From a virus (lineage: Duplodnaviria; Heunggongvirae; Uroviricota; Caudoviricetes): a stretch of DNA of 5,422 bases. The notes under the pieces are model-generated. The model searched no databases. It was not told the DNA's origin and saw only the letters and a list, made by a program, of their open reading frames with translations. Position numbers and translations under genes: made by a program. Positions 1,227-5,422 of the stretch are shown here, piece after piece; the first letter of the stretch is position 1; every line of letters starts with the position of its first letter. The stretch lies in IMG/VR virus record IMGVR_UViG_2681813182_000003; one strand, given 5' to 3'.

Positions 1227-1577
1227 ATGCCATCACTAATCCCACGTGCCTGCCGTAAGCGTGGATGTGCAGGTACAACCACAGACAGTTCGGGTTACTG
1301 CGATAAACATCGCGGTGAAGGCTGGGTGCAGCACCAGCGCGGACTGAGCCGCCACCAGCGTGGCTATGGCTCAAAATGGACGGTGATTCGTGCCCGTATT
1401 CTGAAGCGCGATAAAGGTCTGTGTCAGTTGTGTCTGCGTGTCGGTGTGGTGAGCGAGGCGAAAACCGTCGACCACATCATCCCGAAAGCGCATGGCGGAA
1501 CAGACGCAGACAGCAACCTGCAGAGTCTGTGCTGGCCCTGCCATAAAGCGAAAACAGCGCGCGAACGAATCCGGTGA
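1227..1577 (+). CDS. HNH endonuclease, phage packaging-associated
   Basis: 116 aa. HNH core DHIIPKAHGGTDADSNLQSLCWPCHKAKT with flanking Cys pairs (CQLC ... CWPC) and an N-terminal Cys/His cluster. GAGG lies 5 nt upstream of the ATG. Position immediately upstream of terS is typical of HK97-like packaging modules. Confidence 0.9.
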   Translation: MPSLIPRACRKRGCAGTTTDSSGYCDKHRGEGWVQHQRGLSRHQRGYGSKWTVIRARILKRDKGLCQLCLRVGVVSEAKTVDHIIPKAHGGTDADSNLQSLCWPCHKAKTARERIR

Positions 1578-1599
1578 TAATTATTCTCACTTGTAGGGA

Positions 1600-1659
1600 G
1601 GGGCGGGGCAAATCCCTGTGACCTGACGTCTTCCGGACTGCCCGCCCCATCGTTTTTTT
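1600..1659 (+). terminator. GC-rich inverted repeat plus T7 tract between the HNH gene and terS; candidate intrinsic terminator and/or cos/packaging site
   Basis: GGGGCGGG (1600-1607) is the perfect reverse complement of CCCGCCCC (1641-1648), extendable to 10 bp with one bulge. The loop is about 28-33 nt, followed by TTTTTTT (1653-1659). The loop is unusually large for a canonical terminator. Confidence 0.35.
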
Positions 1660-1698
1660 ATACCCGCGAAAAATGAAATTTAACCAGGAGTGCCGCAT

Positions 1699-2193
1699 AT
1701 GGCTGGAACGGCGGGGCGTTCCGGGCGTCGCCCCAAGCCAACGGCGCGCAAGGCGCTGGCCGGAAACCCCGGCAAGCGAGCCCTGAACAAAGATGAACCT
1801 GTTTTTACGCCCATCAAAGGTGTTGAGCCACCAGAGTGGTTCGCTGAAGAAGATCTCCCTCTCGCCACGATCATGTGGCAACTGACAACCAAAGAACTCT
1901 GCGGTCAGGGCCTGCTGTGCGTGACTGACCTGGCGGTACTTGAGCGGTGGTGCGTGGCCTATGAGTTCTGGCGACGTGCCGTGAAAAATATTGCCATACA
2001 GGGCAACACCATCACCGGTGCAATGGGCGGCAGGGTCAAAAATCCGGAGCTGACCGCCAAAAAAGAACAGGAGTCCGAGATGAGCAGCACGGGGGCAATG
2101 CTCGGACTCGACCCCAGCAGCCGCCAGCGTCTGATTGGCCTGGCGGGGCAGAAGAAAGCCACTAACCCGTTTCTGAAAATTATCGAATCATGA
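1699..2193 (+). CDS. Terminase small subunit, P27 family
   Basis: The track ORF begins at GTG 1690, but AGGAG (1686-1690) overlaps that codon and is correctly spaced for ATG 1699. N-terminus [31 protein letters not shown] is typical of P27-family terS. Stop overlaps the terL start (ATGA). Confidence 0.85.
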
Positions 2194-3923
2194 GCCGGAA
2201 ATCTTACCCCAACGTAAATGCTGCAAATCAGTATGCCCGGGATGTCGTGCGCGGAAAGATTGTTGCCTGCCAGTTTGTGATTCAGGCCTGCCAGCGCCAT
2301 CTTGATGACCTGATGGCGGAAAAAAGTAAGTCGTTTCGTTACCGCTTCGACAAGGACCTGGCTGAACGGGCCGCGAAATTTATTCAGCTGTTGCCGCACA
2401 CCAAGGGGGAGTGGGCATTCAAACGGATGCCCATCACGCTGGAGCCGTGGCAGCTATTTGTGATCTGCTGTGCGTTTGGCTGGGTCAATAAAGGCACCCG
2501 GTTGCGCCGCTTCCGGGAGGTGTACACCGAAATCCCCCGTAAGAACGGCAAATCAGCAATCTCTGCCGGTGTTGCCCTGTATTGTTTTGCCTGTGATAAC
2601 GAGTTTGGCGCGGAAGTGTATTCCGGTGCCACGACAGAGAAACAGGCGTGGGAAGTCTTTCGCCCGGCGCGACTGATGTGTAAACGCACACCCATGCTGA
2701 CGGAAGCGTTCGGGATTGAGGTTAACGCCTCAAACATGAACCGTCCGGAGGATGGCGCGCGGTTTGAACCGCTGATCGGCAACCCAGGTGATGGTTCATC
2801 ACCCCACTGTGCCGTGGTTGATGAATATCACGAGCATGCCACCGATGCGCTTTATACCACAATGCTTACCGGGATGGGGGCGCGACGTCAGCCACTGATG
2901 TGGGCCATCACCACCGCCGGGTACAACATTGAGGGGCCGTGCTACGACAAGCGGCGGGAAGTCATCGAGATGCTCAACGGCTCGGTGCCTAACGATGAAC
3001 TGTTCGGGATCATCTATACCGTTGATGAAGGTGACGACTGGACCGGCCCGCAGGTGCTGGAAAAAGCCAATCCAAATATTGGCGTGTCGGTTTATCGCGA
3101 ATTTTTGTTAAGTCAGCAGCAGCGTGCGAAAAATAACGCCCGTCTGGCAAACGTCTTTAAAACAAAACACCTCAATATCTGGGTGTCGGCGCGTTCGGCG
3201 TATTTCAACTTGGTGAGCTGGCAGAGCTGCGAGGATAAATCACTGACCCTTGAGCAGTTCGAGGGGCAGCCGTGCATTCTGGCCTTTGACCTGGCGCGTA
3301 AGCTGGATATGAACAGCATGGCGCGACTTTATACCCGCGAGATTGACGGTAAAACGCATTACTACAGTGTGGCCCCGCGTTTCTGGGTACCGTATGACAC
3401 GGTGTACAGCGTCGAGAAAAATGAAGATCGACGGACAGCCGAACGCTTTCAGAAATGGGTGGAAATGGGCGTTCTGACCGTTACCGATGGTGCGGAGGTG
3501 GATTATCGCTACATCCTCGAGGAGGCCAAAGCGGCGAACAAAATCAGCCCGGTCAGTGAGTCACCCATCGACCCCTTCGGGGCGACCGGGTTGTCACATG
3601 ACCTTGCTGATGAAGACCTGAATCCCGTCACTATCGTCCAGAACTTCACCAATATGTCCGATCCGATGAAAGAGCTGGAAGCAGCGATTGAATCGGGACG
3701 TTTTCATCATGACGGCAATCCCATCATGACCTGGTGTATCGGCAACGTGGTCGGCAAAAACATGCCGGGTAACGATGATGTGGTGAAACCCGTCAAAGAG
3801 CAGGCGGAAAACAAAATCGATGGTGCAGTTGCGCTGATTATGGCGGTTGGCAGAGCCATGCTGTACGAGAAAGAAGACACGCTGTCTGACCACATTGAGT
3901 CCTACGGGATCCGCTCGCTTTAA
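2190..3923 (+). CDS. Terminase large subunit (ATPase/nuclease)
   Basis: 577 aa. Deviant Walker A-like P-loop ([12 protein letters not shown]), Walker B-like hydrophobic run ending in acidic residues (CAVVDEYHE), C-terminal nuclease-like region ([15 protein letters not shown]). Translationally coupled to terS. Confidence 0.93.
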
Positions 3924-3934
3924 CTGAGGTAATT

Positions 3935-4117
3935 ATGATCATGCTGATTCTCGCGCCTCTGGTGGGCGTGCTGGGTGCGCTTTTGCTGGCGTATGGTGCC
4001 TGGCTGATTTATCCCCCGGCGGGTTTTGTTGTTGCCGGGGCGCTGTGCCTGTTCTGGTCGTGGCTGGTGGCGCGATATCTCGACCGTACACGGCAGTCTG
4101 TCGGCGGAGGTAAATAG
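3935..4117 (+). CDS. Hypothetical small membrane protein (60 aa, two predicted TM helices)
   Basis: GAGG (3926-3929) lies 5 nt upstream of ATG 3935. Codon usage looks enteric (CTG, GCG, GTG rich). Two hydrophobic helices ([22 protein letters not shown] and [19 protein letters not shown]) and a basic C-terminus. The stop TAG overlaps the portal GTG (TAGTG), and the portal SD GGAGGT sits in its last codons. Confidence 0.55.
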
Positions 4118-5273
4118 TGTTCTTTTCGGGATTATTTCAACGAAAAAGCGATGTGCCGGTGACCACGCCAGCAGAACTGCTGATGCTATCGGGCTGTCAT
4201 ACGACACCTATACCGGAAAGCGGATCAGTAGCCAGCGGGCCATGCGCCTGACGGCGGTCTATTCTTGCGTCAGGGTGCTGGCAGAGTCTGTTGGTATGCT
4301 GCCCTGCAGTCTCTACAAAATCAGCGGTACCCTGAAAACACGGGCGGTGGATGAACGACTGCATAAGTTGGTTTCGGCAAAACCTAATGGCTACATGACA
4401 CCGCAGGAATTCTGGGAGCTGGTTATTGTCTGCCTGTGTCTACGGGGGAATTTTTACGCCTACAAGGTAAAGGCACTGGGAGAAGTGGTGGAGCTTCTTC
4501 CGATAGATCCGGGCTGTGTGGAACCGAAGCTGAACAGCCAGTGGCAGCCGGTTTATCAGGTGACGTTTCCGGATGGTTCCGTGGATGTGTTGACCCAGAA
4601 TGAAATCTGGCATGTGCGCACCCTGACGCTGGATGGACTTGTCGGGCTGAATCCCATTGCGTATGCGCGTGAGGCCATTTCACTGGCAGCGGCAACCGAG
4701 GAGCACGGTGCCAGGTTGTTTAGTAATGGTGCGGTGACATCCGGTGTGTTGCGTACGGAACAAAAGCTCACGCCGGATGCTTACGAGCGTCTGAAGAAAG
4801 ATTTTGAGGAGTGTCACACGGGGCTTGGCAATGCTCACCGCCCGATGATTCTGGAAATGGGGCTGGACTGGAAGTCGATGGCGCTGAACGCCGAGGACAG
4901 TCAGTTCCTGGAAACCCGCAAGTTTCAGCTGGAAGAAATCTGTCGTCTGTTCCGGGTGCCGTTGCACATGGTGCAGAACACCGATCGCGCCACCTTCAAC
5001 AATATCGAAGAGCTGGGGCTGGGATTTATCAACTATTCACTGGTGCCGTATCTGACCCGCATCGAACAGCGGATCAACACCGGACTGGTACGAAAAAGTA
5101 AGCAGGGCGTTTATTACGCCAAATTTAACGCCGGGGCGTTACTGCGCGGGGATATGAAGTCCCGTTTTGAAGCCTACGCCACCGGGATCAACTGGGGAAT
5201 TTACTCTTCCAATGACTGCCGCGACCTGGAAGATATGAATCCGCGTCCCGGTGGTGTAATGCCGATCAGTTAA
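4117..5273 (+). CDS. Phage portal protein, HK97 family, with a frame change near 4190-4212 (possible pseudogene or sequencing error)
   Basis: GGAGGT (4106-4111) lies 5 nt upstream of GTG 4117. That frame encodes MFFSGLFQRKSDVPVTTPAELLMLSGCHTTP and stops at 4249-4251. The long ORF ending at 5273 is in the -1 frame relative to it and has no ATG/GTG/TTG start downstream of the small ORF before 4242. Its body carries the conserved portal N-terminal motif (AMRLTAVYSCVRVLAESVGMLPCSLY). The track start at TTG 4026 would give an implausible Cys/Trp/Arg-rich N-terminus. Confidence 0.8.
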
Positions 5274-5305
5274 GGATCAGTTGACCGATCCAGTGGCTGT
5301 GTAAG

Positions 5306-5340
5306 AATCCGGAAACGCTCACTTGTTTCCGGATTTTTTT
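5306..5340 (+). terminator. Perfect 11-bp hairpin plus T7 tract (intrinsic-terminator-like) immediately upstream of the transposase ATG
   Basis: AATCCGGAAAC (5306-5316) pairs perfectly with GTTTCCGGATT (5325-5335), with an 8-nt loop. The T-run 5334-5340 abuts ATG 5341. Confidence 0.6.
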
Positions 5341-5422
5341 ATGCACATTGGACAGGCTCTTGATCTGGTATCCCGTTACGATTCTCTGCGTAACCCACTG
5401 ACTTCTCTGGGGGATTACCTCG
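5341..5422 (+). CDS. insG: IS4-family (DDE) transposase, N-terminal fragment (truncated by window end)
   Basis: ATG 5341 opens a reading frame that runs to the window end. The first 27 residues match my memory of IS4 InsG. There is no phage-module context and no conventional SD; the start is buried next to the hairpin. Confidence 0.55.
   Translation, partial: MHIGQALDLVSRYDSLRNPLTSLGDYL

Follow-up and report, generated by a model that had tools for sequence, protein, structure and literature searches.

A cos site of the HK97/SfV/phiP27 packaging type very probably lies between the HNH and terS genes of a defective lambdoid prophage

The window, by which we mean the whole stretch of 5,422 nucleotides analyzed here, is the late region of a lambdoid prophage, as judged from its open reading frames, its Pfam matches, and the annotation of its relatives. 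The genes and the intergenic gap that is the subject of this work are arranged as follows.

11-226: holin gene
226-723: lysozyme gene
720-1184: Rz gene, with an embedded Rz1-like open reading frame at 940-1122
1227-1577, plus strand: HNH endonuclease gene (Pfam HNH, E 1.6e-16), with an N-terminal zinc ribbon and a stop codon at 1575-1577
1578-1698: intergenic gap of 121 bp, from the HNH stop codon at 1575-1577 to the terS ATG at 1699
1686-1690, plus strand: Shine-Dalgarno sequence AGGAG for terS, 8 nt ahead of the ATG at 1699, by direct reading of the sequence
1699-2193, plus strand: gene for TerS, the small terminase subunit, of the P27 family (Pfam Terminase_4)
2190-3923, plus strand: gene for TerL, the large terminase subunit, of the HK97 type (Pfam TerL_ATPase and TerL_nuclease)
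3935-4117: open reading frame of 60 amino acids
from GTG 4117: HK97-family portal gene, frameshifted and truncated by IS4

The genes on either side of the gap belong to a packaging module. The window TerL found a single sequence match in the PDB, the HK97 TerL 6z6d (E 5e-26, residues 80-556). The window HNH protein matched the HNH endonuclease of phage GVE2, 5h0m, over its full length (E 1e-12), and this enzyme is its closest solved homologue; it also matched HK97 gp74, with 34% identity over 70 amino acids (E 2e-10). The HNH protein is, by homology, the predicted accessory nuclease of the packaging module. The terS start at 1699 is the same start that is annotated in SfV. The short open reading frame at 3935-4117, between terL and the portal gene, encodes a hydrophobic, YmfR-like membrane protein for which no Pfam match was found, and it is YmfR in the E. 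coli relatives. The closest E. coli relatives (L116 1494-2020, E. coli VG888-46E9) have an extra insert of ~800 bp between Rz and HNH, which the window does not have; this insert carries the iss (increased serum survival) gene and an Rz1 remnant.

A preliminary description of this DNA had noted a G/C-rich inverted repeat in the gap, a GACGTC palindrome in its loop, a T7 tract, and an A/T-rich stretch, and had read the whole as a candidate cos site. All four sequence features were confirmed exactly where they had been placed. Together with the elements defined by our comparisons, they occupy the gap as follows.

1596-1617: G-box, GGGAGGGGCGGGGCAAATCCCT, a conserved upstream element of the probable cos site, containing the left arm of the inverted repeat
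1600-1607: left arm of the inverted repeat, GGGGCGGG
1618-1634: variable spacer, which includes the palindrome
1625-1630: GACGTC palindrome
1635-1638: GGAC, flanking the cut on the left; at the predicted nick 1638/1639 the bottom strand is 5'-GGCA^GTCC
1639-1648, plus strand: predicted 10-nt cohesive end, TGCCCGCCCC, the cosN equivalent, identical to the SfI end and including the right arm of the inverted repeat
1641-1648: right arm of the inverted repeat, CCCGCCCC
1653-1659: T7 run, from which an A/T-rich stretch continues to 1682
1654-1682: block TTTTTTATACCCGCGAAAAATGAAATTTA, made up of the T-run, ATACCCGCG, an A-tract, and GAAATTTA; a cosB-like, probable TerS recognition site

The arms of the inverted repeat are complementary at 8/8 positions and are separated by 33 nt. 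Pairing of 1609-1610 with 1639-1640 extends the stem to 10 bp, with a one-G bulge and a loop of 28 nt. A perfect 8-bp inverted repeat with a spacer of 3 to 40 nt arose in 4.9% of 5,000 dinucleotide shuffles of the gap, and the repeat is thus mildly unusual. Folding as RNA gave z-scores of -1.2 (gap) and -1.6 (1594-1662), and folding as DNA gave -0.7. We found no Rfam match within 1578-1698 at E <= 1, and a promoter and terminator scan made no call in the gap. The reality of the feature rests on comparative conservation and on experimental mapping in relatives, not on thermodynamics. Outside the gap, the sole Rfam match in the window, mir-200 at 3714-3788 inside terL, is spurious (25 bits versus a gathering score of 86, E 0.05). 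A perfect 9-bp inverted repeat is found within terS (2071-2079/2101-2109, GAGTCCGAG / CTCGGACTC), and a hairpin at 5306-5316/5325-5335 followed by a T-run lies within the IS4 element.

The genome ends of related phages place a cut within the right arm. The ends of SfI virion DNA were determined by run-off sequencing, which revealed a 10-nt gap, 5'-TGCCCGCCCC-3', relative to the prophage (PMC3636060). This sequence is exactly window 1639-1648, and when the end of the SfI record is joined to its start, the junction matches the window from the G-box to terS with 3 mismatches. The 'cos-site' feature annotated in phiP27 (AJ298298, 21806-21815), CGCCCGCCCC, aligns to the same positions. The Edwardsiella phage EPP-1, whose assembly was corrected with PhageTerm (PMC11043334), has a record that ends with TGCCCGCCTC, and the HK97 record ends with CGCCGCCAAA; both align to 1639-1648 without gaps. 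The gap-free fit to the HK97 end is the outcome of an alignment to HK97-like cos regions that had been proposed as a check of the candidate site. Direct end mapping comes from SfI, while the ends of HK97, SfV, and phiP27 are taken from record annotation and later papers. A megablast search against phage records returned several records that begin or end inside the gap, as well as the phiP27 cos-site under the match. We considered the record starts of SfV (1632), SfII (~1574), and ST64B (1684) as termini and rejected them; they lie off the mapped end and look like arbitrary linearization points. The EPP-1 TerS (L088 48-650) reaches 201 amino acids through a tandem duplication of ~37 N-terminal residues, visible in a TerS alignment.

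The window thus has the site between the HNH gene and terS with terL next, a TerL of the HK97 type, and homology to a mapped 10-nt end, as is expected of an HK97-type cos. It also has the marks of the SfV/SfI/phiP27 subgroup: a P27-family TerS (Terminase_4), a (T/C)GCCCGCCCC end, and the ACCCGCGAAA block. The SfI mapped end, the phiP27 annotation, the HK97 and EPP-1 record ends, and the flanking genes all support the cos reading, and we are highly confident that the gap at 1578-1698 is the cos site of a packaging module of the HK97/SfV/phiP27 type. The HK97 ends are 10-nt 3' overhangs (PMC9410871). The two run-off reads of SfI left a gap instead of overlapping, as 3' overhangs would produce, and from this and the analogy with HK97 we infer the 3' polarity of the ends in the SfI and window subgroup. 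The mapped 10-nt end of SfI and the 3' overhang of HK97 also give the position of the bottom-strand nick, which we infer to be at 1638/1639, with the top-strand nick at 1648/1649.

In the mechanism that we propose, the terminase (TerS and TerL) and the HNH protein encoded upstream would make two staggered nicks on concatemeric phage DNA, and the nicks on the bottom and top strands would release the sequence TGCCCGCCCC as a 10-nt 3' single-stranded end. Specificity most likely comes from the binding of TerS to the block at 1654-1682 just downstream of the cut, as in HK97. TerS bound to this block would place TerL and the HNH protein over the nick core.

We compared the site across three sets of relatives: viral contigs sharing at least 99% TerS identity (80), genome loci from across Enterobacterales sharing 74-99% (19), and annotated phages. 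From the G-box to the terS-proximal block, 24 diverse sequences aligned without gaps, which shows a fixed architecture (alignment column n is window position 1588+n). By this comparison, the site appears to be built of three sequence modules at fixed spacing: the G-box, the nick core, and the block at 1654-1682. A pattern scan of viral contigs found at least 120 loci; the scan required the G-box and nick core together and so shows breadth, not independent co-occurrence. Among the scan loci listed, 102 had an open reading frame of at least 120 amino acids starting within 300 nt, and these frames fell into 11 clusters at 60% identity. The HNH gene ended 65-85 nt before +1 in 107/112 of the scan loci listed, and a TerL homologue (20-98% identity) lay downstream in 75/84 of those listed. 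Here +1 is the first base of the record, a numbering that reproduces T16 and C:G 21 of HK97.

The block at 1654-1682 is the most constrained noncoding DNA in the region. Its identity is 86-100% even in relatives that match the window at only 35-59% of terS third codon positions, among them loci from Morganella, Providencia, Serratia, and Acerihabitans. Each of the 11 TerS clusters has its own block from +1 to +36. Among the scan loci listed, the window-type block (TTTTTATACCCGCGAAAAAT) was present at 53 loci, the phi467-type block (CATCGCCGCAGGTTCGAAAACTTTTT) at 28, and the F1055-type block (TTTTTACGCGCCCAAAATAAG) at 6. The block lies within 50 nt of terS, so that physical linkage is a confounder of its association with TerS type. 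The minimal TerS site of HK97 is +15 to +29, in which an arginine reads the C:G pair at +21 and an adjacent A-tract is required for deformability, not for orientation (PMC11331095). The window block spans +6 to +34, and it covers both the position of the HK97 TerS site and its motif type, a CCCG with an A/T tract: in the window, CCCG at 1663-1666 corresponds to +15 to +18 and is followed by CG and an A5 tract (1669-1673), all inside the constrained block. No sequence similarity was detected between the window TerS and HK97 gp1, and the Foldseek comparison was not significant. On the basis of constraint and position, we think it somewhat probable that TerS binds 1654-1682.

At the nick core, G1635 is present in 23/24 sequences, AC at 1637-1638 (columns 49-50) and GCC at 1640-1642 are invariant, and position 1639 is T or C. 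The sequence that follows the top-strand nick is xTC (T in 20/24, C in 21/24) and that following the bottom-strand nick is GT(C/A); the two form a partial dyad around the 10-nt end. Positions +1 to +5 are variable. On the bottom strand the nick falls within 5'-GGCR^GT; the window and SfI have CA^GT here, and HK97, phiP27, and the Klebsiella phage have CG^GT. In the work of Xu and Gupta, CG^GT was the sequence nicked by the HNH enzymes of phage gamma and GVE2, with BG^GT or CSG^GT nicked by related enzymes; HK97 gp74 was reported to be nonspecific in vitro (PMC3592412). The invariant AC/YG resembles this HNH nickase motif and is therefore a lead for the HNH protein as the bottom-strand nickase. 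We regard a bottom-strand nick by the HNH protein, as suggested by this motif, as a tentative possibility. The core ACYGCC-N7-TC occurs 4 times in the window versus 0.42 expected, and 0/200 shuffles reached 4. The three further matches, at 1923-1937 (minus strand), 4334-4348 (minus strand), and 4837-4851 (plus strand), all lie in coding sequence and have neither a G-box nor a TerS block; the excess may be an effect of codon composition. The core alone cannot confer specificity.

The G-box is 73-95% identical in relatives, compared with 29-71% for the adjacent spacer at 1618-1634. G1601, G1602, G1606, and AATC at 1611-1614 are invariant in 24/24 sequences, HK97 included. The consensus, GGGGAGGGGSRGGTCAAATCYCT, ends 20 bp before the predicted bottom-strand nick, and this distance is constant in all aligned sequences, with no indels. 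The GACGTC palindrome of the spacer is absent from phiP27, HK97, the Klebsiella phage, EPP-1, and others and is confined to the SfV subgroup; we assign it no function, as it is not conserved outside that subgroup. In HK97 the G-box adjoins cos even though the HNH gene ends ~320 nt away, and we conclude from this that the G-box belongs to cos and not to the HNH gene. The viral-contig scan found the G-box in common among at least 11 TerS types, and its reader would therefore be a component other than TerS. By analogy, a possible role is that of a termination signal like lambda cosQ. In the termination complex of HK97, the TerL lumen is filled by ~25 bp of DNA, the end of which is at the portal entrance (PMC10359639); by this measure, the G-box would sit inside the portal channel at cleavage. 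A fuller proposal is that the G-box is a third, cosQ-like cos subsite of HK97-type packaging, which we did not find described in the literature searched, that it is read by TerL, the HNH protein, or the portal, and that the HNH protein is the bottom-strand and TerL the top-strand nickase. We give this combination a low probability. If it were true that HNH nicks the bottom strand and TerL the top strand, this would settle a division of labor that the HK97 literature leaves open, namely, whether gp74 cuts one strand (PMC11331095).

Two mosaic breakpoints were seen at the site. Phages of the phi467 type share the HNH gene and G-box with the window up to ~1618 and then have another nick, block, and TerS type. 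The second breakpoint is at ~1671, where phiP27, having shared the HNH gene through cos, diverges. In these alignments, cos marks the border at which recombination joins the lysis/HNH module to the terminase module.

We considered whether the site is still in use. The SfV portal gene is not homologous to that of the window, and we dropped SfV as the portal reference and used an E. coli prophage. Relative to the intact homologue in that prophage, the window's portal gene lacks 1 nt at 4178/4179, and its first ~21 codons (GTG 4117, MFFSGLFQRKSD...) are off-frame from the remainder (the frame of 4026-5273). The end of an IS4-family element at ~5257-5422, which is 97-98% identical to IS4 copies in many E. 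coli genomes, then interrupts the gene. Because the portal gene is both frameshifted and cut by IS4, this prophage copy is defective in two ways. These two lesions favor the view that the site is a relic, a cos by descent that is no longer used in a prophage unable to make heads. However, cos and the reading frames of HNH, terS, and terL are undamaged and almost identical to their counterparts in functional phages, so a co-resident or superinfecting phage of the SfI/SfII/SfV type could still recognize the site. We give the relic view about an even chance. It bears on the activity of the present copy, not on the identity of the element: the cos site in the present genome probably goes unused unless the machinery comes from a related helper phage. 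In Shigella and E. coli, defective prophages retain intact cos sites, which could serve related helper phages. Shigella flexneri SFBU0723 (CP182557.1; L093, L094) has two copies of terS and cos in the same orientation, ~49 kb apart across the record origin, which could be tandem or duplicated prophages. This pair bears on whether chromosomal DNA between two cos sites could be packaged.

The inverted repeat raises a different question, which is whether it is recognized as a structure (a cruciform, a hairpin, or a symmetric site for a dimeric protein) and so defines cos. The arms are perfectly complementary in the window, in SfV/SfI, and in phiP27, and pairing in register (77.5%) exceeds that in slid registers (49-58%). 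However, the structure was itself drawn from the window sequence, which makes an in-register excess expected. When partners were shuffled among the 24 sequences, the ten stem pairs formed in 78.5 +/- 1.2% of cells, compared with 77.5% observed, and 423/500 shuffles reached or exceeded the observed pairing. A double change was seen at only one pair, and the consensus fold (-3.9 kcal/mol) contained no compensatory pair. Where one arm has changed, the other has not followed: the left arm is altered in L021 and L069 (GGGGGAGG) and the right arm in L061 (CCCGCCTC), each opposite an unadjusted partner, and the CGCCGCC-type ends of HK97 and the Klebsiella phage oppose unchanged G-runs. The loop is the least conserved part, and the DNA fold z-score given above is similarly unfavorable. 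The complementarity of the arms follows from their composition, a conserved G-run in one and a conserved C-run in the other. The preliminary description was right that an inverted repeat is present, but its stem-loop is not conserved as a structure in the 24 relatives, and the cut corresponds to the right arm, not the loop. We therefore consider recognition of a structure very unlikely: the comparison does not support the hairpin as a functional unit, and no hairpin or cruciform would be needed.

Least credible of all is a Rho-independent terminator that ends the lysis/HNH transcript (stem 1600-1648 plus T7), with the resemblance to cos incidental or the terminator function additional. In its favor, 1594-1662 can form a stable RNA hairpin (-27 kcal/mol), and the T7 run follows 4 nt after the stem. 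Against it, the terminator scan made no call, the loop has 28-33 nt, the T-run is 4 nt past the stem in the window and 6-7 nt past it in phiP27, F1055, and EPP-1, the RNA z-scores reach only -1.2 to -1.6, and no compensatory change occurs in 24 relatives. HK97, the Klebsiella phage, and EPP-1 have a degraded stem but retain the invariant, unpaired AAATC and AC, and the head genes lie downstream in the same late operon. The site thus has none of the loop of ~3-8 nt, the immediate U-run, and the compensated stem of such terminators, and the doubt that the large loop had raised in the preliminary description was borne out by the missing scan call and the absence of covariation. Membership of the constrained TerS block accounts better for the T-run than a terminator does.

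With the cos reading, the genome ends of this prophage family can be annotated to the base, at the predicted nicks 1638/1639 and 1648/1649, and the eye-catching hairpin becomes a by-product rather than a signal. What the comparison brings out are three modules: a G-box shared across TerS types, an invariant AC/YGCC nick core, and a block that is specific to TerS type and lies at the position of the HK97 TerS site. The modular anatomy, the block particular to each TerS type, and the resemblance of the nick motif to HNH targets add modestly to what was known and give testable hypotheses. Two points of HK97-type packaging become testable with simple mutants: which nuclease acts on each strand and whether an upstream termination element exists.

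Finally, we compared the site with known systems, starting with the most distant. The cos of lambda (cosQ-cosN-cosB) follows the same logic, with a nick site flanked by partial dyad elements, a site specific to TerS on the side of terS, and possibly an upstream termination element. However, lambda has no HNH partner and its TerS is of a different family. The lambda ends are 12-nt 5' overhangs. A lambda-type cos would have such an overhang, an IHF site in cosB, and a Nu1-type TerS, whereas the window has a 10-nt end with a probable 3' overhang and a Terminase_4 TerS, and we found no IHF consensus in the gap with one mismatch allowed.

The HK97 system is closer, with its 10-nt 3' overhang, its TerS site at +15 to +29, and cleavage assisted by the HNH protein gp74. 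It differs from the window in the sequence of the end (CGCCGCCAAA versus TGCCCGCCCC) and in the position of CCCG (+19 to +22 versus +15 to +18). In addition, gp74 does not have the N-terminal zinc ribbon, and its gene ends ~320 nt before cos, compared with 71 nt in the window. In the Stx2e phage phiP27, the HNH and cos region is homologous through window 1671 (93.7%), and phiP27 shares the G-box, the ACCCGCGAAA motif, and the TerS Pfam family with the window. The first base of its end is C, where the window has T, and its spacer differs and does not contain GACGTC. Its TerS is 49% identical to that of the window, and its block is partly different (ACACCCGCGAAATTAAAAATTT).

The closest systems are those of SfI, SfII, SfIV, and SfV, the serotype-converting phages of Shigella flexneri, which have the same 10-nt end, TGCCCGCCCC, and the same order of HNH, cos, and terS. 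Their terS/terL DNA is 97.5-98.4% identical to that of the window (SfI/SfV group). The window differs from this group in its HNH allele, with the G-box GGGGCGGGGCAAATCC rather than GGGGCGGGTCAAATCT, and, unlike the group, its prophage is defective, with the portal frameshift and IS4. The element is therefore one already known, the cos of the SfI/SfV/phiP27 subgroup of HK97-type packaging.
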